Assembly: GCA_045614725.1 (NCBI GenBank)
Contig: JAZLDK010000023.1
Coordinates: 1 to 34,812, forward strand
Length of the DNA stretch: 34,812 bases
Reading direction: 5' to 3'
Source of the DNA: Candidatus Enterousia sp.
Lineage (GTDB): Bacteria; Pseudomonadota; Alphaproteobacteria; Rs-D84
Shown here: positions 1-9,344 of the stretch, in pieces
Layout: each line of letters opens with the position of its first letter
How positions within the stretch are numbered: the first letter of the stretch is position 1
Notes under the pieces: model-generated
Told to the model about the DNA's origin: nothing
Seen by the model: the letters and a program-made list of their open reading frames with translations, nothing else
Databases searched by the model: none
Made by a program: the position numbers and the translations under genes

Positions 1-8
1 TATACGCG

Positions 9-141
9 GTTCGAAAGTGTATTCGAAGAGATAAAAAATGGAAATTTAACTTTCGAACTCGCCAAACCTTTATGTTTCAAACAAAAAATGCCCCAGTGGG
101 CATTTTAATAACTGTGGTTGTGCTGTCTGTGCAATTCGCGA
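9..141. repeat. Cassette junction repeat, copy A
   Basis: GTTCGAAAGT (9-18) and ACTTTCGAAC (49-58) form an inverted repeat, followed by a hairpin (85-106) and TGGTTGTGCTGTCTGTGCAATTCGCGA (115-141). Same layout at 711-845 and 1467-1588. Confidence 0.9.
85..106 (-). terminator. Intrinsic terminator-like hairpin in junction A
   Basis: AAAATGCCC-cagt-GGGCATTTT flanked by A/T tracts, downstream of the minus-strand NUDIX gene. Confidence 0.7.
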
Positions 142-196
142 GCCGATATAATCAAAATCGGACAAGAGATTTATGAAGCGAAAAACAAATTAAAGA

Positions 197-670
197 TTAT
201 TTAAAGTTTTTAATTATATCTTTAAATACAGGTTCTGTTCCTATATATTTTAAAGATTTTAATTTTGAAACATCAATCCATTGTGCGGGTTTAAGATATT
301 TCTTTTCATCTGCTGTCAAAAGAACTTTTGAAGGTGCTGCTATTGTAGTTTTGCAGATATAAAACAATTGAACACAATGATAATTTGTCCCCGTTTTAAA
401 ACTTTTGTACAAAGAAGTATATATACTTAAAATCTTTATTGGTTTCACACTAAGCCCTGTTTCTTCTTTTATTTCTCTTTTTAATGCATCGATATGGTCT
501 TCGCCCATTTCAATTGAACCACCCGGCAAAGCATATTTGTTATTAACAGGCAACAATAAAATTTTGTTTTTTTTAATAACTACCCCGTATACTGCGGGAT
601 TAAAAATTAACGATTTAGAATCCACTTTAAAAATTTTGCCGTTTACATCATGAACAGCTACTTTCGGCAT
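197..670 (-). CDS. NUDIX hydrolase
   Basis: Nudix box GGSIEMGEDHIDALKREIKEETGL; AAGGGG SD-like motif upstream. Confidence 0.92.
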   Translation of the reverse strand: MPKVAVHDVNGKIFKVDSKSLIFNPAVYGVVIKKNKILLLPVNNKYALPGGSIEMGEDHIDALKREIKEETGLSVKPIKILSIYTSLYKSFKTGTNYHCVQLFYICKTTIAAPSKVLLTADEKKYLKPAQWIDVSKLKSLKYIGTEPVFKDIIKNFK

Positions 671-695
671 TTTATAAACCCCTTTCTTTCACTTG

Positions 696-725
696 ATTAT
701 ATCACAACTAGTTCGAAAATGACAA
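696..725 (-). promoter_or_regulatory. Putative sigma70 promoter of the NUDIX gene
   Basis: Minus strand TTGTCA-N18-TATAAT with extended TG; overlaps the left arm of the junction B inverted repeat. Confidence 0.5.
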
Positions 726-845
726 TTTTTTGACATTTTTCAAAAACCGACTTTCAAACTCGGTGGAAACATTAGAAAACAAAATAAAACCCGCCTTTAT
801 CGGCGGGCTTGTCTATCTTGGTTGTGCTGTCTGTGCAATTCGCGA
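711..845. repeat. Cassette junction repeat, copy B
   Basis: GTTCGAAAAT (711-720), ACTTTCAAAC (750-759), hairpin CCCGCC-tttatc-GGCGGG (790-807), and a 27-bp block (819-845) identical to 115-141. Confidence 0.9.
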
Positions 846-1574
846 ACTAAATTGATTGAGATTAAGCAAGAAATAATAGATTTTAAACACAGATTTATGG
901 TATAATGTACAAACATGGAAAACAAAGTAAAAACTCTTTATCATGGTTCACAACATAAAATAACAGATGGCGTTATTCATGCCCGTGATGCATATTTACC
1001 AACAACAAACACGCCTATAACGGCTGTATTTGCAACGCCTGATTTTGCTCGTGCAAGAAATTATTCGTGTATGCGATTGATAGCAGACGGATGGAAATCC
1101 CCAAGAACAAGTGATATCTTGTATGTTCAAAAATTAAGCCAAGATATTTCTGGCAAAAAAGCATATATATACGAATTAGACTCTGACGGTTTTGAGTGCG
1201 ACATCGATGGGACTTATTATTCCTTGACGGACAAACCAATTAAAAGAGTTATTGAAATTGATGTTATGCAGGAAATAACAAGTGGAAACATAAAAGTATA
1301 CGTTCTAAAACCGGGTATAGATTGTCCACAAGACCGTAGCGATATATGGACAGAACTTGTTAATAACAAGGATAATTTTGAATTGTATAAGCCTGTTTCA
1401 AAAAATCTTGATATGTCGCTTTTATCACAAATGAAAGATTTAGGGATTAATAAATAATCTAAAAAAGTTCGAAAGTGGCATAAAATCGCCACTTTTTTAA
1501 TTCTAACTTTCGAACTCGATGAAAGCATTAGAAATCAAAAGAAAACTTGCTCCGATGGGCAAGTTTTGAAACTT
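819..1574. mobile_element. Putative single-gene integrative cassette 2 (756 bp, ART-like cargo)
   Basis: From TGGTTG at 819 to just before TGGTTG at 1575; one AT-rich gene with its own -10 box. Confidence 0.6.
915..1457 (+). CDS. Hypothetical protein, probable ADP-ribosyltransferase-like fold (Arr-like)
   Basis: LYHGS, AVFATPDFARA and YIYEL in the order seen in Arr/HYx ART families; TGnTATAAT at 898-906, 8 nt before the ATG. Confidence 0.6.
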   Translation: MENKVKTLYHGSQHKITDGVIHARDAYLPTTNTPITAVFATPDFARARNYSCMRLIADGWKSPRTSDILYVQKLSQDISGKKAYIYELDSDGFECDIDGTYYSLTDKPIKRVIEIDVMQEITSGNIKVYVLKPGIDCPQDRSDIWTELVNNKDNFELYKPVSKNLDMSLLSQMKDLGINK

Positions 1575-1588
1575 TGGTTGGGGCGCAC
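1467..1588. repeat. Cassette junction repeat, copy C, ending in a duplicated tRNA-Gln 3' end
   Basis: GTTCGAAAGT (1467-1476), ACTTTCGAAC (1506-1515), hairpin AAAACTTGCTC-cgat-GGGCAAGTTTT (1542-1567), then TTGGTTGGGGCGCAC (1574-1588), identical to 1748-1762. Confidence 0.9.
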
Positions 1589-1719
1589 TCAATTCCCTCG
1601 GCATATTATGCCTGCGGGGCATTCCTGACGATTTGATTGCACGTTGTTTATCAAATCTACTCATTGTCGAACCGGCAACTGGCGTTGCAGATTACGAACC
1701 GTGGCTCCGTTCAATATTA

Positions 1720-1742
1720 AAACGCACCACAAGGGTGCGTTT
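1720..1742 (-). terminator. Intrinsic terminator after tRNA-Gln
   Basis: AAACGCACC-acaag-GGTGCGTTT just 3' of the CCA end on the minus strand. Confidence 0.75.
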
Positions 1743-1748
1743 GAATAT

Positions 1749-1822
1749 TGGTTGGGGCGCACGGATTCGAACCATGATAAAGAGAACCAAAATCTCTTGT
1801 CCTACCATTAGACGACACCCCA
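1749..1822 (-). tRNA. tRNA-Gln(TTG)
   Basis: Reverse complement TGGGGTGTCGTCTAATGGTAGGACAAGAGATTTTGGTTCTCTTTATCATGGTTCGAATCCGTGCGCCCCAACCA: cloverleaf, anticodon arm AGAGA-TT TTG GT-TCTCT, GGTTCGAATCC T-arm, encoded CCA. Confidence 0.96.
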
Positions 1823-1834
1823 ATAGCGCCAATG

Positions 1835-1862
1835 ATTATAATCAAATTTATTACTATTTCAA
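1835..1862 (-). promoter_or_regulatory. Putative promoter of tRNA-Gln
   Basis: Minus strand TTGAAA-N16-TATAAT about 12 nt upstream of the tRNA. Confidence 0.55.
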
Positions 1863-1891
1863 TAAATATTTTAACACACCACTACAAAAAC

Positions 1892-1919
1892 TTGACAGAC
1901 GCACGCGTTGTACTACAAT
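1892..1919 (+). promoter_or_regulatory. Putative sigma70 promoter
   Basis: TTGACA-N16-TACAAT, 7 nt before the ATG at 1927. Confidence 0.55.
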
Positions 1920-1926
1920 CAGGATT

Positions 1927-2850
1927 ATGAATAAGAAACAAAATCTTGTATGGCAGGCGAACACAGACCGCATCGTAAACAAAGCGGTCGGTAAAATTCG
2001 TAAATACCAAGAAACGCACAATTCCGCGGAACAGTCCGCATTGCTTAAACAAATGTCGCCAGAGGTACAAATAATGGTACGATACTGGTCGCCCCAGGAC
2101 GCAATTGAAAAACTGCGCACAGCCGCCCAGAAAGATCAATTCAGACCGCGAGATTTGTCCATTGAAATGTTCGCAATGCGCGATGACTTGGAATATGTAG
2201 GCGGGGCGTTTTCAACCTATAATTATGAAATTTCAAAAATGTGGCGAAAAGACACCCCCGCAGATGAAATAAAGTTTGTTATTCGCGAAGAAATTCAAAA
2301 TAATTTGCGCCCCGTCGCGTATCAGTATGGGGAACAGATTGCGCGCCTGATGAACAAACATGAAAAACTGGCAGGGACGGCAACGAATTCTTTAAGGCAC
2401 AGAAATCCAAGCGCCATCGGAATATTTTTACAAACACTGGCCAACGATATGAAGTTCGAATTAGGACTGCACAATTACACATTAAAGATTCATGTGGTCG
2501 ATTCTTGGAACCATATACCAAGGCGCCTTTGGAATTCTGTTGACAACGATACTTTTGCGATTATTGATTTTGACAGCCGAAAAACATGGATACATATTAA
2601 TCGCAAAACCATCTTTGCAGACAGGGATAAAAAATATAAATTTAACGCGATTGTCGCAACCATGGCACATGAGTTTGGGCACTTTATCGATTGGTTCGCG
2701 CCAGACATGGGGGCACTGGGCGCACAAAAGGCCGTACTTGACTCTGGATTATATGACGAAAAGGATTATTATTCCAATGCGACCGAAGAAAGTTCAGCAA
2801 TGATTGAAAAAATCGTTTATCAAAAACTTAACGAATTACAGCGCCGATAA
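1927..2850 (+). CDS. Hypothetical protein with C-terminal zincin (HExxH) metallopeptidase-like domain
   Basis: Start set at ATG 1927 because the longer ORF overlaps tRNA-Gln. Motif AHEFGHFID plus downstream NATEESS. Confidence 0.75.
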   Translation: MNKKQNLVWQANTDRIVNKAVGKIRKYQETHNSAEQSALLKQMSPEVQIMVRYWSPQDAIEKLRTAAQKDQFRPRDLSIEMFAMRDDLEYVGGAFSTYNYEISKMWRKDTPADEIKFVIREEIQNNLRPVAYQYGEQIARLMNKHEKLAGTATNSLRHRNPSAIGIFLQTLANDMKFELGLHNYTLKIHVVDSWNHIPRRLWNSVDNDTFAIIDFDSRKTWIHINRKTIFADRDKKYKFNAIVATMAHEFGHFIDWFAPDMGALGAQKAVLDSGLYDEKDYYSNATEESSAMIEKIVYQKLNELQRR

Positions 2851-2858
2851 TTTTTATA

Positions 2859-2886
2859 GTGACAAAATATGATTTAATGATATAAT
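2859..2886 (+). promoter_or_regulatory. Putative promoter of tRNA-Glu
   Basis: GTGACA-N16-TATAAT with extended TG, 13 nt before the tRNA. Confidence 0.55.
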
Positions 2887-2899
2887 CCCTGACGAAAAT

Positions 2900-2974
2900 G
2901 GTCCCATCGTCTAGCGGTTAGGACATCGGATTCTCATTCCGGTAACACGGGTTCGATTCCCGTTGGGACTGCCA
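2900..2974 (+). tRNA. tRNA-Glu(CTC)
   Basis: GGTCCCATCGTCTAGCGGTTAGGACATCGGATTCTCATTCCGGTAACACGGGTTCGATTCCCGTTGGGACTGCCA; anticodon loop TT-CTC-AT; encoded CCA. Confidence 0.96.
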
Positions 2975-2980
2975 AATCTT

Positions 2981-3005
2981 AAAACACCGCACAAAGCGGT
3001 GTTTT
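2981..3005. terminator. Bidirectional intrinsic terminator
   Basis: AAAACACCGC-acaaa-GCGGTGTTTT between convergent tRNA-Glu and the LRR gene. Confidence 0.8.
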
Positions 3006-3062
3006 GTTGTTTTCTTTATATTCTGATGGTTCGTGCAGCGCGCGGCATATCACACCAAAACA

Positions 3063-4652
3063 TTAATGTTCAAAAAACGAACGGTCATTATTTTGAAATG
3101 CATGGCCACTGCTTTCTCCCCTGCGTTTCTGTATATCTTGGATTTTTTCTTCTAGGCGTTTCTGTGCCTCTTGAAAACTTTCTTCCAGGCGAGCATTTGC
3201 CTCTTGGGTGTGTTTTTTAAGTTTTTTATCAAACTGTTGCCATGCTATTGCCCGCGCGATATCAGTGTTGTAATATGCAAAATCGTCAAGAGTTCTCTCG
3301 TTTAATTCTGGCGCATAAAATTTTTTCAAGTTCGGCTGAGCACGGGAAAGATGTCCAAGATATGTGGCCTTTGGCACATTTATAGATTCCATAACCTGAT
3401 TACATTGCAGGGAATATTGCTCAATTCTTATTAATTCAGGCAAATCCAGTTCTGTCAACGCTTCATTACATGTCAAAAAATCTTTTTCTGTGCGTTGAAG
3501 TTTTGGGGCCCTAAATTGTGACAATATTTTATTGGCGCTTAAAAAATTTTCCCCTATTGTTTCAACGCTTGCCAAATGCATTGTCCGCAAAGAATCGTTG
3601 AAACGCAGGAAATTGTTACCAATCTTTTTGACATGTGGCAAACTTAATTCAATTATTTTGCCGTCCTTTATTGTCACCCTGTTTCCGTTCGGCGTGCTTA
3701 GGACCGTTGTTTTATCTGATTTGTTCGTAGTCCTTGTCACCGACTGGCCGTTAAATGCCGCCTTGAATATATTGACCGTATCATCGTCAATTGGCGACGA
3801 TATTTCTTTTGTCCTGGTATCATAAATCATGTAATCCATCATTATCTGACAGTTGCTGTCTAATTTAGTAATTGTACTGCCAGAAAAATAATAATCCGAA
3901 CCGAAATGAACGTTATCTATTTCATAGCGGTATTGTACAATTTGATCATGAATCATTAGGTACTTGTTCGGCAAGGGAGTGTTAGAAACATTGAAATCAA
4001 CACCAAAATATACCTGTAATGCCATTGTCAGACCAGGGATAATGTTATCTGGGTTATTATCAAAAGTCGCATCTGGATTTTGATCCTTTATTGTGTGATT
4101 ATAGCGATTTTTGATTGATATAAAACCACCGTCTTTGATTATTTGAATCGATATAACCGAAGTTCCGTATTCATCTTCGCGTCTTGGCGTGTCCGAAGGA
4201 CGTATTTTATCGGCACCGCGTTTTACAGCATGAATCATGTGATAGTTTATATGACGCCTTGGGTCCCTAAAAGTGCATATTTCTTCACCCGGACGATAAT
4301 ATTTTATTATAGAATTTTTTTGTTCTTCGGTCTTTACAACAAAAGCATCATAACCGGCCTCGGACAACAATTCCAGTGGGGATTTCGTCGTGAAATATTG
4401 ATTCTCTTCGTGCCGGGTGTATATTTCCTGAATAACCCTGCGTATTTTCAACGCATCATATTCATCACGACCAGCGTATTCCAATATATGCACTATATTA
4501 GGGACACCAAGCAAACTGCCGTCGTGGGTCCTGTCGCCCCTAATAACCTGGGCAAACTTTTCGCCATTTTGTTTTTTTATCTGCTTAAAGACTTTTTCCG
4601 TATCTATTTTTTCCGCCAATTCAGTCCCCTTTCTTGCCAAGAATTTTAACAT
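3063..4652 (-). CDS. Leucine-rich-repeat (BspA/TpLRR-like) protein with uncharacterised N-terminal domain
   Basis: C-terminal ~22-aa repeats (LPHVKKIGNNFL, LASVETIGENFL, LPELIRIEQYSL); N-terminal EDEYGTSVISIQ...SIKNRYNH...NPDATFDNNPDNIIPGL block; charged coiled-coil tail. Confidence 0.8.
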   Translation of the reverse strand: MLKFLARKGTELAEKIDTEKVFKQIKKQNGEKFAQVIRGDRTHDGSLLGVPNIVHILEYAGRDEYDALKIRRVIQEIYTRHEENQYFTTKSPLELLSEAGYDAFVVKTEEQKNSIIKYYRPGEEICTFRDPRRHINYHMIHAVKRGADKIRPSDTPRREDEYGTSVISIQIIKDGGFISIKNRYNHTIKDQNPDATFDNNPDNIIPGLTMALQVYFGVDFNVSNTPLPNKYLMIHDQIVQYRYEIDNVHFGSDYYFSGSTITKLDSNCQIMMDYMIYDTRTKEISSPIDDDTVNIFKAAFNGQSVTRTTNKSDKTTVLSTPNGNRVTIKDGKIIELSLPHVKKIGNNFLRFNDSLRTMHLASVETIGENFLSANKILSQFRAPKLQRTEKDFLTCNEALTELDLPELIRIEQYSLQCNQVMESINVPKATYLGHLSRAQPNLKKFYAPELNERTLDDFAYYNTDIARAIAWQQFDKKLKKHTQEANARLEESFQEAQKRLEEKIQDIQKRRGESSGHAFQNNDRSFFEH

Positions 4653-4684
4653 AAAAAATAATACGCTTCAATATATCATGACAA

Positions 4685-4709
4685 AAAACACCGCAAAACG
4701 CGGTGTTTT
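4685..4709 (-). terminator. Intrinsic terminator of the valS operon
   Basis: AAAACACCGC-aaaac-GCGGTGTTTT 17 nt past the stop at 4727; same stem as 2981-3005. Confidence 0.8.
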
Positions 4710-4726
4710 TGTATCTTAAAAATGCA

Positions 4727-6201: not shown

Positions 6202-6930
6202 TTATATCTCTTGCCATTGACAGATTACAACCGCATGTTCTGTATCGCCGGTACGGATTTTATGGCGCGTGGTCAGACCATCAATCGCCACATCGATACA
6301 GATTTCCGGTGTATCTGGACTGATTTCTTTCTTGAAATTAATGTTAATTTTACGCAACTTGTGCCCCGTGCGATATGCATAGCCAACACTTTCGGTTGCC
6401 CATACCGCATAGACCGCATTGTTTATATGCTGGTTCACATCAATGTCATCAAAGCGACATTTCATTACATGGGTTTTGTTGGTTTCAAAATCTGGGAACT
6501 TGTCAAAGGCGCACCCATATGCGCGGGTTGGCACCACAACATCAGGCGACAAATGATTTGCCAACGGCACTGGACGACGGCGTGACATGTCGATTAATAT
6601 CCACTGGGAAGTGGCACGAACCATCAAACGACCATCCGCACCATGAACTTCAAAATCACGGGTGGCACGCAGGGCATCCTGACATGATGGCCAGGTACTG
6701 AAAGTCAATTCTTCGCCTTCGCGTGGTAATTCCAATATATCGACCAGATAATACATCACAACCCAGCCAACATTATTTTCAAGGCAATATGTGCGCCCAC
6801 ACCCAAGGTGTTCAGCATGACGGTCCGCAATCGATTGCAATTCGTTCATTAAAATCAATGGACGAACATTACCAAACCTGTCGCACTGATAGGCCTGTAA
6901 TATTCTTTTTTCAATCAATTTATCCGCCAT
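6202..6930 (-). CDS. Acyl-ACP thioesterase (FatA/B-like double hotdog fold)
   Basis: YQCDRFG, ATSQWILID, and catalytic DIDVNQHINNAVY. Confidence 0.9.
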   Translation of the reverse strand: MADKLIEKRILQAYQCDRFGNVRPLILMNELQSIADRHAEHLGCGRTYCLENNVGWVVMYYLVDILELPREGEELTFSTWPSCQDALRATRDFEVHGADGRLMVRATSQWILIDMSRRRPVPLANHLSPDVVVPTRAYGCAFDKFPDFETNKTHVMKCRFDDIDVNQHINNAVYAVWATESVGYAYRTGHKLRKININFKKEISPDTPEICIDVAIDGLTTRHKIRTGDTEHAVVICQWQEI

Positions 6931-6944
6931 GCCTGCCCCCCCGT

Positions 6945-9344
6945 TTATTGTTTTTGTTCCACAACAACAAAATCAATCGCATCGCCCAAAACGATATCGT
7001 TTGCGCGGGCCGCAGATTTTATCAAACCATGCAGAACCGCCGGTGTGTCGGATGGAATGGTCAGCGTTTCCAACTTAGCCCCATTTCCAACCTTGCGTTC
7101 TGTGCGCAGCCCACGAATATTCTTCAAGATTTCCAGTGCAATGTTCATCGTTGATACATCGGTATCATAATCAGATTGCACCATTGGATAGGATGTCAAA
7201 TGCAGTGTTTCACCGCCTTCGAAATCCTTGTAAATCTTTTGCCATAATTCTTCGGTCAAGAAAGGAATAAACGGCGCATACAATCCGATTATTGCACGCA
7301 ATACCGTGTACAATGTCCATTGTGCCGACAGTTTTGATTCCGCGCTATACTTTTCTGGCGCCCAGAATCTGTCTTTGATAAATTCCAGATATTGGTCACA
7401 GAAAATATCCCAGAAGAATGTATCAATCGCCGCACGGGAATTATAGTTATCGTATTTATCCAGATGCTTTCTGGTTTCGGCGATTGTCTTGTTCAATTCA
7501 AACAATACCCATCTGTCTTCGATAAAACGTTCGGACACAGGAACCTGGACGGCGGTTGCCGGTTCGAAATCAGACAAATTCATCAGAACATATTTTGATG
7601 CGTTCCACAATTTTGTTAACAACTTAGAACCGCGTTTAACTTCGTCATCAGAATAACGAAGGTCCGTACCAATTGGCGCAGTCGAAATCCAATAACGCAA
7701 TGCATCTGTTCCAAATTTTTCAACAGTATCCAGCGGGTCTGTTCCGTTACCCTTGGTCTTGGACATTTTTTGTCCCTTGGAATCGCGAATCAATCCATGA
7801 AAGTTTACAGTACGGAATGGGACATCACCCATAACGTATATGCCCATCATAATCATACGCGCAACCCAAAAGAAAATAATATCGGCACCAGTGTACAATA
7901 AATCTGTCGGATAATATTTTTTAAGTTCAAGGGTTTGTTCCGGCCAACCCAATGTCGAAAATGGCCACAAACCCGACGAGAACCATGTATCCAAAACATC
8001 GGGGTCGCGTGTCAGGGTTTTGCCACCGGACATCTTAATCGCTTCTTCTTCGGTTTCAGCAACATATACAGCGCCATCTGCATCATACCATGCTGGTATG
8101 TGATGCCCCCACCACAACTGACGCGAAATTGTCCAAGGACGAATTCCCTTCATCCATGCCATAAACAGGTTATAGCGATGGTCGGGAATAAATTTTATTT
8201 TGCCCTCTTCAACAGCCTTAATCGCAGGTATCGCAAGTTTTTCAGCATCCACAAACCACTGATCGGTCAAAAATGGTTCAACAGGAACCTGGCCGCGTTC
8301 GGAATATGGCGTTGGGATAATTTTGTCTTCGATTTTTACCAACAGGCCCGCGGCTTCGATGTCGGCAACAACCGCTTCGCGCGCCTTGTATCTGTCCAGA
8401 CCACGATATTTTTCCGGCACAACCGGATTGTCATTCATTTTGGCATCTGGGGTCAAAATACATACCGGTGTCAGGTTGTGACGAACACCAACCTCCCAGT
8501 CATCAAAGTCGTGGGCCGGTGTGATTTTAACCGCCCCTGTACCTTTTTCTGGGTCTGCATGTTCGTCACCAATAATTGGAATTTCAATGTCTGTTAATGG
8601 GATAATCGCCTTGCGCCCGATTAAATGTTTTAACTTTTCGTTTTCAGGATGAACGGCAATAGCCTGGTCACCGAACAATGTCTCGGGACGGGTTGTTGCA
8701 ATTTCAATCACGCCACCATCAACCAATTGGTAATTAAAGTAATAAAACTTGCCCTTTTCGTCGCGTGTTTCCACCTCTAAATCAGATACAGATGTTTGCT
8801 GTTTTGGGCACCAGTTAACCAAACGCTTTTCACGATAAATTAAACCCTCGTTATACATTTTGACAAACAGTTTGGTGACCGCACTGGACAAACCTTCATC
8901 CATAGTAAAACGTTCACGTTGCCACACGGGTGTCACACCCAAAATGTGCAACTGGTTCATAATCTGACCACCTTTGTCGGCCTTCCACTTCCAGGCGGCA
9001 TCCAATTTTTCCTGTAATGACAAAGAATGTGGATTTATACCGCGTTTCGACAGGTCGCGCTCAACCAACAACTGGGTTGCAATCGATGCGTGGTCGGTGC
9101 CGGGCTGCCATAAAACATCAAAGCCCGCCATACGCTTGTACCGACACATAATATCGGTCAAAACATTATCCAGTGCGTGCCCCATATGCAAATTACCCGT
9201 CACATTTGGTGGTGGCATCATGATGCAAAATGATGTCTTGTCAGAATTGACATCATTTGCCCAAAAATTATTGCTATCCCAAAATTCTTGGATTCTGGTT
9301 TCTATTTCACGCGGACTAATATTTTTACCAAGTTCGATATTCAT
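6945..9344 (-). CDS. valS: Valine--tRNA ligase
   Basis: PPPNVTGNLHMGH, ATTRPET, GTGAVKITPAHD, DVLDTWFSS, KMSKT. Start placed at ATG 9344 (AGGA upstream). Confidence 0.97.
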   Translation of the reverse strand: MNIELGKNISPREIETRIQEFWDSNNFWANDVNSDKTSFCIMMPPPNVTGNLHMGHALDNVLTDIMCRYKRMAGFDVLWQPGTDHASIATQLLVERDLSKRGINPHSLSLQEKLDAAWKWKADKGGQIMNQLHILGVTPVWQRERFTMDEGLSSAVTKLFVKMYNEGLIYREKRLVNWCPKQQTSVSDLEVETRDEKGKFYYFNYQLVDGGVIEIATTRPETLFGDQAIAVHPENEKLKHLIGRKAIIPLTDIEIPIIGDEHADPEKGTGAVKITPAHDFDDWEVGVRHNLTPVCILTPDAKMNDNPVVPEKYRGLDRYKAREAVVADIEAAGLLVKIEDKIIPTPYSERGQVPVEPFLTDQWFVDAEKLAIPAIKAVEEGKIKFIPDHRYNLFMAWMKGIRPWTISRQLWWGHHIPAWYDADGAVYVAETEEEAIKMSGGKTLTRDPDVLDTWFSSGLWPFSTLGWPEQTLELKKYYPTDLLYTGADIIFFWVARMIMMGIYVMGDVPFRTVNFHGLIRDSKGQKMSKTKGNGTDPLDTVEKFGTDALRYWISTAPIGTDLRYSDDEVKRGSKLLTKLWNASKYVLMNLSDFEPATAVQVPVSERFIEDRWVLFELNKTIAETRKHLDKYDNYNSRAAIDTFFWDIFCDQYLEFIKDRFWAPEKYSAESKLSAQWTLYTVLRAIIGLYAPFIPFLTEELWQKIYKDFEGGETLHLTSYPMVQSDYDTDVSTMNIALEILKNIRGLRTERKVGNGAKLETLTIPSDTPAVLHGLIKSAARANDIVLGDAIDFVVVEQKQ

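Follow-up and report, generated by a model that had tools for sequence, protein, structure and literature searches.

Composite islands of the staphylococcal cassette chromosome (SCC) are formed by large serine recombinases (LSRs; i.e. CcrAB or CcrC) at the 3' end of one conserved gene, rlmH, and contain tandem arrays that include units without a recombinase, for which the enzyme would have to be supplied in trans. Integrons hold rows of mostly single, unrelated genes of diverse kinds, separated by a conserved and partly palindromic module and often without an adjoining recombinase. The tycheposons of Prochlorococcus are described in a preprint as integrating at tRNA genes of a streamlined host, with newcomers pushing older elements inward together with partial tRNAs and remnants; by this account, 910 of 937 elements use a tyrosine recombinase and a minority an LSR, and the elements carry several genes, often with replication modules (bioRxiv 10.1101/2020.12.28.424599). 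An array with likenesses to all three was analysed in Candidatus Enterousia sp. (assembly GCA_045614725.1; 1.02 Mb in 121 contigs). The window (i.e. the whole stretch of DNA analysed) comprises the first 34,812 bases of contig JAZLDK010000023.1, here called C23, and the array lies at positions 1–1822, where it ends at a gene for tRNA-Gln(UUG). It resembles SCC and tycheposon islands in its workings and integrons in its outcome, and is a member of none of these groups. The reading favoured here, at a probability of roughly 0.55, is that positions 1–1822 are the tRNA-proximal part of a stack of recombinase-less cassettes that carry the attachment site (attP) of an LSR and were integrated serially at the 3' end of tRNA-Gln(UUG). 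Contigs of this genome are labelled C, other genomes of the genus G and fetched loci L.

The joints between units were examined using pattern searches and sequence comparisons. At each of junctions A, B and C, a left arm, GTTCGAAA(G/A)T (starting at 9, 711 and 1467), is followed after a gap of 30, 29 and 29 nt, respectively, by a right arm, ACTTTC(G/A)AAC (at 49, 750 and 1506), and then by a terminator-like hairpin and the core TGGTTG, which starts at 115, 819 and 1575. Positions 115–141 and 819–845 are an identical 27-mer, and 1574–1588 is identical to 1748–1762, which contains the 3' end of the minus-strand tRNA-Gln(UUG). The combined joint pattern occurs at exactly three sites in the 34,812 bases against an expectation of 0.00 from 100 dinucleotide-preserving shuffles; these sites yield five strand matches because two of them are perfect palindromes. 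Terminator-like hairpins are likewise abundant, with 11 in positions 1–3100 as compared to 2.7 ± 1.5 in shuffled sequences. On the favoured reading, a cassette would run from core to core, with a single self-expressed gene between a P arm of ~75 nt and a P' arm of ~110 nt (i.e. inverted repeat, spacer and terminator hairpin). The features of the array are as follows.

9–58: inverted repeat of junction A, two 10-nt arms with TTCGAA in each around a 30-nt loop.
85–106, minus strand: terminator-like hairpin of junction A, oriented for the tRNA-sense strand.
115–189: core TGGTTG (115–120) and P arm of cassette 1, the first 27 nt equal to 819–845, with a T-loop-like CGA at +25.
197–670, minus strand: cargo gene of cassette 1, a NUDIX hydrolase of 157 aa (Pfam and NCBIfam scans).
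711–759: inverted repeat of junction B.
787–810, minus strand: terminator-like hairpin of junction B.
819–893: core TGGTTG (819–824) and P arm of cassette 2.
915–1457, plus strand: cargo gene of cassette 2, 180 aa, with its terminator in the loop of junction C.
1467–1515: inverted repeat of junction C.
1542–1567, minus strand: terminator-like hairpin of junction C.
1575–1748: 'mini' unit of 174 bp without an open reading frame (ORF), between junction C and the tRNA gene.
1749–1822, minus strand: tRNA-Gln(UUG), the anchor of the array, its 3' end being the proposed attB half-site.

An earlier note on this DNA, made from the sequence alone, had described the arms, gaps, cores, 27-mer and tRNA identity at these same coordinates, and all of them held. 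Its further statements that each interval contains one gene in either orientation with its own promoter, and that no recombinase accompanies the array, were also borne out: the 157-aa and 180-aa genes lie on opposite strands and have promoter-like sites, and contig C23 gave no match to a tyrosine or serine recombinase. The loops of the inverted repeats hold the promoter or terminator of the adjoining gene, as for the promoter-like site of cassette 1 (725–696), which lies inside junction B. Two corrections were needed: the array continues past the contig edge (see below), and junction C is not the last joint, as the 174-bp unit still separates it from the tRNA gene. This mini unit opens with a 14-nt copy of the tRNA-Gln 3' end (15 nt including the T at 1574) and closes with a terminator (inverted arms at 1712–1728 and 1734–1750). 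No Pfam or NCBIfam family was found for the 180-aa protein of cassette 2, and a homologue search gave it no name, three of its relatives being labelled only 'hypothetical protein'. Rfam searches of window 1–3200 (E up to 1) and of three other loci (gathering scores) returned only tRNAs, with no family for the joints and no match to the mini unit of the window. A 13-nt perfect inverted match was also observed between 160–172 in the P arm of cassette 1 and 1790–1802 in the anticodon-stem region of tRNA-Gln; a conserved P-arm sequence, CAAGA(G/A)AT, lies at this match, which may be due to chance or be a relic of a tRNA.

The origin of the joints was examined using LSR genes of the genus. In G004, a 511-aa LSR with Resolvase, Recombinase and Zn-ribbon domains directly adjoins tRNA-Gln and aligns end to end, at 36% identity, with the 486-aa LSR encoded by the genome studied here. 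The last ~65 codons of the G004 gene correspond to a joint, with the left arm in FKSSK, the right arm in LLSNCEL, the hairpin in KPF...NGC, and CKSWLGRTDSNH as core plus tRNA antisense; the antisense tRNA end, TGG TTG GGG CGC ACG GAT TCG AAC, is read as WLGRTDSN. LSR genes of the genus are convergent to their tRNA, and read its CCA end as TGG (i.e. W) and its T-loop as GAT TCG AAC (i.e. D-S-N). This arrangement was observed in 19 of 20 full-length LSR loci, which end inside a convergent tRNA gene (His, Asn, Glu-CUC, Gln-UUG, Gln-CUG, Pro, Met or Arg-ACG); at the remaining locus, the LSR gene is truncated and a joint comes after it. Near-full-length LSR matches (E ~1e-59 or better) are present in 19 of the 81 genus genomes, including the one studied here, and matches with E <= 1e-10 in 29 of 81. 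The P' side of the joints is homologous to the last 55–65 codons of these genes, and a hidden Markov model (HMM) built from only five non-coding joints of the present genome matched the LSR 3' end in 13 of the 20 loci. On this homology and these HMM matches, the joint is, as judged from sequence, an LSR gene tail combined with the attachment site.

The genome-wide search for a recombinase that had been suggested alongside the first description returned one LSR locus, of the His type: the ORF at C111 250–1710 encodes Resolvase, Recombinase and zinc-ribbon domains and overlaps tRNA-His at 1699–1775. An LSR locus in G021 is 98% identical to it. The 3' end of a second serine-recombinase gene occupies the beginning of contig C111 (1–1866), immediately upstream of the LSR, and the His-type element (C111, L047 and L087) has two serine recombinase genes in tandem; in G021 this element also contains genes for a DNA methylase, an AAA ATPase of the AbiEii/OLD kind and a protein with a weak rolling-circle Rep-like match. 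The cassettes of the window encode no LSR, indicating that they are at most non-autonomous derivatives of LSR elements; they would be stripped-down LSR integrative elements that have kept both sides of attP.

The geometry of the joints was compared with that of known serine-integrase sites. For the A118 family (LI) integrase, the report cited gives a 9-bp motif for the zinc-ribbon domain (ZD) at positions 16–24 of the attP half-site; in attB this motif lies closer to the centre by 5 bp, and the two sites otherwise share only a very short core (PMC3783163). In the array and its relatives, the CG of the T-loop antisense lies at +20 from the first T of TGG in nine of ten distinct tRNA ends, and, among 48 distinct P arms, 30 have the CG of the T-loop-like motif at +25 and none has it at +20, a count to be read with the reservation that these P arms are related by descent and are not independent. 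Five LSR-carrying elements of 4.7–9.5 kb have a distal end composed of terminator, core and a P arm whose +5 place is taken by a perfect TTCGAAC, and the P side of the cassettes is the same in length and motif place as in these LSR elements. The tRNA T-loop would thereby be the ZD motif of attB, and its counterpart in attP would be the T-loop-like motif of the P arm, which lies more distally by 5 bp; the putative sites would thus show the 5-bp shift of the A118 family, and to either side of the core the joint sequences appear to be common to the cassettes and bona fide LSR elements. Most P arms share only six nucleotides (TGGTTG) with tRNA-Gln, as those on C19 share TGGCAG with tRNA-Glu, and the attP/attB motif geometry would place the crossover inside TGGTTG. 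Two departures from the A118 sites are apparent, as the motif here is the tRNA T-loop and an additional inverted motif pair lies 60–110 bp from the core. A conserved GAACGG block lies at about -15 to -10 on the LSR side and is kept in some cassettes; this block is a direct and not an inverted copy of the motif, and the idea of a symmetric attP was dropped.

The inverted repeat is among the best conserved parts of the joint. Information content was 1.67 and 1.46 bits per column in the two arms and 1.70 in the core, as against 0.6–0.9 for the loop, the spacer, the terminator and the P arm. Arm complementarity holds in 94% of cells, and five of 11 pairs have changed on both sides, a level reached in none of 500 shuffles, a figure that is not a probability as the rows are related by descent. 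The arms covary even where they are LSR codons, both arms changing together in Asn-type genes, which makes a constraint at the DNA level likely. Each arm carries the TCGAAC of the T-loop, pointing outward, and the ~50 bp between the outer ends are near the spacing of attP; our guess is that the repeat is an extra LSR-binding site. The repeat was also considered as the crossover site and rejected, as the loop centres share no dinucleotide and the similarity of cassette copies runs through the repeat to the core.

These features suggest a route by which the array could have been assembled. An LSR supplied in trans by a co-resident element would recombine the attP of a cassette with the tRNA 3' end, the terminator of the incoming cassette would restore a target consisting of tRNA plus terminator, and the next cassette would enter at the same place. 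The location of unit ends in relatives supports the suggestion of attP-like joints and of units delimited by the TGGTTG core. Matches in relatives start exactly at 115 (the P arm; seven cases) or stop at 824. Contigs (rather than reads) of four public runs were also compared with window 1–3000, none of these runs containing half of the sampled words; cassette 2 was found in contigs of three runs from three studies, at 818–1573, at 818–1565 and from 820, with unlike sequence beyond, and the commonest left boundary was the core itself. Types of repeat, spacer and terminator, taken as one block, pair freely with at least four P-arm types or with the tRNA itself.

Transfer of individual cassettes was assessed by comparing cassette 2 with its surroundings in other species. 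The unit at 786–1584 and its copy beside tRNA-Gln(CUG) in L033, an 8.5-kb locus of another species, share 96.7% identity, whereas the other matches of this locus to the genome studied here are 68–77% identical and the tRNA-Gln(CUG) region 92%. In L034, from a second species, the corresponding figures are 94.5% for cassette 2 and 66–89% for other matches. The gene of cassette 2 is the first, second or fourth from the tRNA, depending on the genome. Cassettes thus appear to travel between species. Cargo identity and order at tRNA-Gln differ among relatives, and the tRNA-Gln(UUG) or tRNA-Gln(CUG) of fetched relatives is followed by anything from no joint to seven or more, with differing genes between them. 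Sites without a joint also exist, as the tRNA-Gln of some relatives has its terminator only; in G003, G002 and G020 (L020, L022 and L028), the junction model matches the tRNA alone (with the terminator in G003) and no repeat lies downstream in the fetched stretch. None of the outcomes that the earlier note had listed as contrary to its proposal was encountered.

Unit structure and cargo were examined in two samples, i.e. the fetched relatives and, independently of these, 25 metagenome contigs obtained with a degenerate P-arm pattern. The exact 32-nt pattern of junction A had no match in the metagenome contigs. Their arrays end at tRNA-Gln(CUG) in 11 cases and at tRNA-Met in one, the other 13 stopping before any tRNA. 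Among 35 metagenome units, measured from core to core, 25 contain one ORF (>=60 aa), six contain none (183–272 bp) and four contain several; the median length is 809 bp and the cargo is oriented 13 versus 12. The sample of fetched relatives, which is biased as many loci were fetched through cassette 2, gave 31 units with one ORF in 19, none in six and several in six, a median of 790 bp and orientations of 7 versus 12. Behind a single P-arm pattern, 23 cargo ORFs (21 metagenomic and two from the window) fall into 18 sequence clusters. The encoded proteins include NUDIX, Fic, GT8, M16 peptidase, MatE, DUF3800, HD and MFS families, an AP-endonuclease-like TIM barrel, an S-adenosylmethionine methyltransferase, an RNase T-like exonuclease and a Pol-beta-type nucleotidyltransferase, and many have no family. 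The cargo genes are intact, with promoter-like and terminator-like sites of their own.

Joints are widespread in the genus and are tied to tRNA genes, as had been predicted, with arrays starting at the 3' ends of tRNA-Gln(UUG), tRNA-Gln(CUG), tRNA-Glu(UUC) and tRNA-Tyr. Within the present genome, the joint HMM found three copies downstream of tRNA-Glu(UUC) on C19 (core TGGCAG), a joint downstream of tRNA-Tyr on C52 and three copies on C112 (13061–13227, 20675–20751 and 22255–22422), whose core mimics the 3' end of tRNA-Asn. The C112 joints are 1.7–7.5 kb apart with several genes between them and no tRNA called nearby; neither tRNA-Asn nor tRNA-Ile is present in this assembly. A BLAST search with 131 nt of joint B matched at least 38 of 80 other genomes of the genus, a lower bound given that BLAST failed to detect the joints that the HMM locates in G004. 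Searches of 16 genomes from five other families matched the tRNA alone and returned no joint.

ORF-less mini units of 173–272 bp were observed as a family in their own right, beside tRNAs for Gln, Pro, Ser, Arg and Tyr and, in G004, Lys and His. They start with 14–19 nt of the local tRNA 3' end, have a centre that is conserved across tRNA types and end in a terminator; a mini unit is usually the unit nearest the tRNA, and mini units are tandem in some relatives. The genome studied here has further mini units at four places.

C16, 3385–3473: mini unit.
C116, 12152–12295: mini unit.
C75, 7173–7273: mini unit.
C52, ~6902–7300: mini unit.

Several observations weigh against serial integration by an LSR. 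An occupied, attL-type site is not normally a recombination partner of attP for serine integrases, and serial insertion would need relaxed selectivity or a P' side that mimics B'. The search of this genome gave no LSR of the Gln type, the sole LSR locus being that of the His type, and joint-B BLAST matches show no association with LSRs across the genus, occurring in seven of 18 other genomes that contain an LSR and in 31 of 62 that lack it. The 20–30 nt to the left of the core, where a P' half-site is expected, differ among the joints of the window and lack GAACGG. Unit ends away from the core also occur, on the left at 781 and 783 and on the right at 1512 and 1546. No circle, excision product or empty site within a population was seen in the contigs of the four public runs. 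Candidate circle joints from 1512 to 757 (X4), 1500 to 786 and 1516 to 815 were rejected, being explained by strains with mosaic joints: in L034 and L036, cassette 2 is followed by a spacer and terminator of the joint-B type, and the contig joints recorded as 'back 756/702/715' and 'skip 704' are accounted for by such mosaic joint types in other strains. A skip from 162 to 867 (X3), which could have been a variant without cassette 1, was represented by one contig at a depth of 2.6 with 30 nt on one side and was not used. To these points is added the shared descent of the P arms counted above.

A more far-reaching proposal is that the genus has a working gene-capture platform, parallel to integrons but based on LSRs and tRNA genes. 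Sporadic LSRs would insert and excise self-expressed single-gene cassettes of ~0.8 kb in trans at tRNA 3' ends, each cassette having an attP of ~190 bp that is a fossil of an LSR tail with symmetric T-loop mimics; the target would be rebuilt at each insertion, arrays would grow outward, cassettes would move between species and the LSR would sense its state through its C-terminus, integration changing this end from one encoded by the P arm (excised) to one encoded by the tRNA antisense (integrated). We regard this whole as possible but doubtful.

The strongest rival, which we hold to be unlikely, is that the array is a graveyard reshaped by homologous exchange, in which the joints are the decayed ends of full-size LSR elements and the cassettes are immobile on their own, being carried within larger elements or swapped through the 130–190-bp joints; swapping through flanking homology has been proposed for 'minimal mobile elements'. 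The identity of the joint with an LSR gene tail suits this explanation, as do the truncated LSR genes and tail fragments that exist in the genus (G013; G044 and G065) and the frequency of arrays in genomes without an LSR. The sequence adjoining the core is degenerate in the joints of the window, breakpoints within joints vary (781/783 versus 818–820, and 1512/1546 versus 1573/1584), and joints are mosaics of loop, spacer and terminator types; the off-core ends, together with the shuffling of loop types against spacer types, indicate that homologous exchange inside joints also happens. Random decay would not, however, be expected to yield dozens of units with a common end just outside the left arm and, in every case, a retained P arm of ~75 nt with the +5 motif. 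Arms and core are far better conserved than the remainder and the arms covary, the commonest left boundary is the core with matches starting at 115, and the cargo genes are intact and equipped with promoter-like and terminator-like sites, all of which speak against mere remnants.

That a lambda-type tyrosine integrase built the array as a classical tRNA island, with the repeat arms as its arm-type binding sites, is improbable. The attP of tyrosine integrases is of a size like that of the ~190-bp module, with its repeated motifs 60–110 bp from the core. Tyrosine integrases of ~400 aa are found in the genus beside tRNA-Arg(UCU) and the 3' half of a tRNA-Lys gene, and the mini units have the 14–19 nt of tRNA identity that is frequent in tyrosine systems. 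None of the ten integrase loci examined in the genus is, however, at a tRNA-Gln array, and the tRNA-Gln arrays examined showed no tyrosine integrase beside the tRNA. The present genome has four tyrosine-recombinase matches, of which two are Xer-like and two lie on short contigs without a tRNA or joint. The arms are codons of an LSR tail, and P arms that share only 6 nt with the tRNA fit a serine recombinase. An immobile intergenic repeat, similar to repetitive extragenic palindromes (REP) or miniature inverted-repeat transposable elements (MITE) and serving as a terminator or regulator-binding module between ordinary genes with an incidental link to tRNAs, was already disfavoured and is hardly credible, since cargo differs between species at the same tRNA, and one cassette is ~97% identical across species that are ~70% identical elsewhere. 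In its favour, the loops do hold promoters or terminators of neighbouring genes, and the three C112 copies lie 1.7–7.5 kb apart with no tRNA called nearby, although these copies mimic a tRNA-Asn whose gene is missing from the assembly.

The sequence beyond the left edge of the window was examined as well. Contig C71 opens with 141 bases whose reverse complement is identical to positions 1–141, an overlap typical of a node in an assembly graph, and many other contig ends of this assembly share sequence with another contig. The array, which had been noted to run off the left edge, thus continues onto C71, where one more cassette is present beyond the contig edge; it contains a 187-aa ORF with a weak acetyltransferase-like match and is closed by a terminator, beyond which lies the tRNA-Gln end in a degenerate copy (C71 ~818–900). 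Next on C71 (~860–1260) are ORFs of 149, 443, 202 and 1009 aa. An ORF run of the same sizes (149, 443, ~200 and ~1010 aa) lies 5' of tRNA-Gln in relatives (L020–L025 and L029–L031), i.e. on the opposite side of the tRNA, indicating that the locus has been rearranged here; tRNA-Gln and the array appear to be inverted relative to this operon. Some joints were observed to be preceded by a partial joint facing the opposite way (core, terminator-like stretch and arm), as in L040 5379–5626, L030 12523–12676 and C71 81–238, and the larger palindrome formed by such pairs may be a trace of inversions between joints.

Other features were observed next to the array and elsewhere in the genome. The 307-aa gene at 1927–2850 gave no family in Pfam and NCBIfam scans. 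A terminator just past tRNA-Glu(CUC), at 2980–3006, recurs near-unchanged at ~4688–4712, on the far side of a 529-aa leucine-rich-repeat gene (3063–4652, minus strand); LSRs of relatives target tRNA-Glu(CUC), and 2975–4712 may be another insert at a tRNA 3' end, one without the inverted repeat. Two more tRNA-Gln(UUG) genes are present, at C100 397–468 and at C118 6016–6257, the latter in a tight Gln-Leu-Glu cluster that may stem from a phage or from a different organism in the bin.

Set against the systems from which this account started, the array differs from each in definite respects. As compared to SCC islands, the target is a tRNA 3' end and not rlmH, the units are of ~0.8 kb with one gene and not of tens of kb, and the LSR ORF runs into the antisense strand of its target gene; the LSRs here score 59–77 bits against NCBIfam Ccr cut-offs of 700–900 and are distant relatives, although the two tandem LSR genes of the His-type element add to the likeness. 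The description of the array as integron-like stands as an analogy only. Its head is a tRNA gene and not attI, the candidate enzyme is a serine and not a tyrosine recombinase, and the cassettes have promoter-like sites of their own and both orientations (13 versus 12 and 7 versus 12 in the two samples), where integron cassettes would be promoterless and point one way. There is no PF00589 match on the contig, and those in the genome are Xer-like or on short contigs, IntI signatures not having been searched for. By inspection, the joint arms have GTT outermost, and the placement of GTT and AAC in attC core sites is the opposite. Tycheposons differ in that the units here contain single genes and a conserved module of ~190 bp derived from a recombinase gene tail.

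In SSV-type archaeal integrases the integrase gene spans attP, and mycobacteriophages have an integration-dependent immunity. The LSR genes of the present genus are similar in that integration would alter the end of a gene overlapping attP; they differ in that only the last 8–25 codons would change and that the enzyme is a serine recombinase. A literature search of partial coverage, with supplements excluded, returned no description of arrays in Enterousia, of LSR-linked single-gene cassette arrays at tRNAs, of self-expressed single-gene cassettes, of a joint that is a fossil of a recombinase tail or of LSR ORFs finishing in antisense tRNAs. What appears to be new in this locus and its relatives is the derivation of the joint from an LSR gene tail and the ending of the LSR gene inside an antisense tRNA. 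A paper on the genus presents gut bacteria with reduced genomes and does not mention mobile elements or tRNAs (PMC12306168).

If LSRs mobilise these cassettes in trans, the arrays would represent a second route to integron-like rows of single genes, mechanistically independent of the first. The host is an uncultured gut lineage with a genome of ~1 Mb and otherwise few visible routes of gene exchange, and such a route would, if true, explain a flexible gene pool in reduced genomes. It would also provide a natural set of serine integrases that target the universal T-loop and acceptor end of tRNAs, with many attP variants paired to different tRNAs, and this set would help to explain how target sites are selected by serine integrases. 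The LSR ORF that continues into an antisense tRNA, as in 19 of 20 loci, would be a compact case of a gene product that changes with the state of integration.

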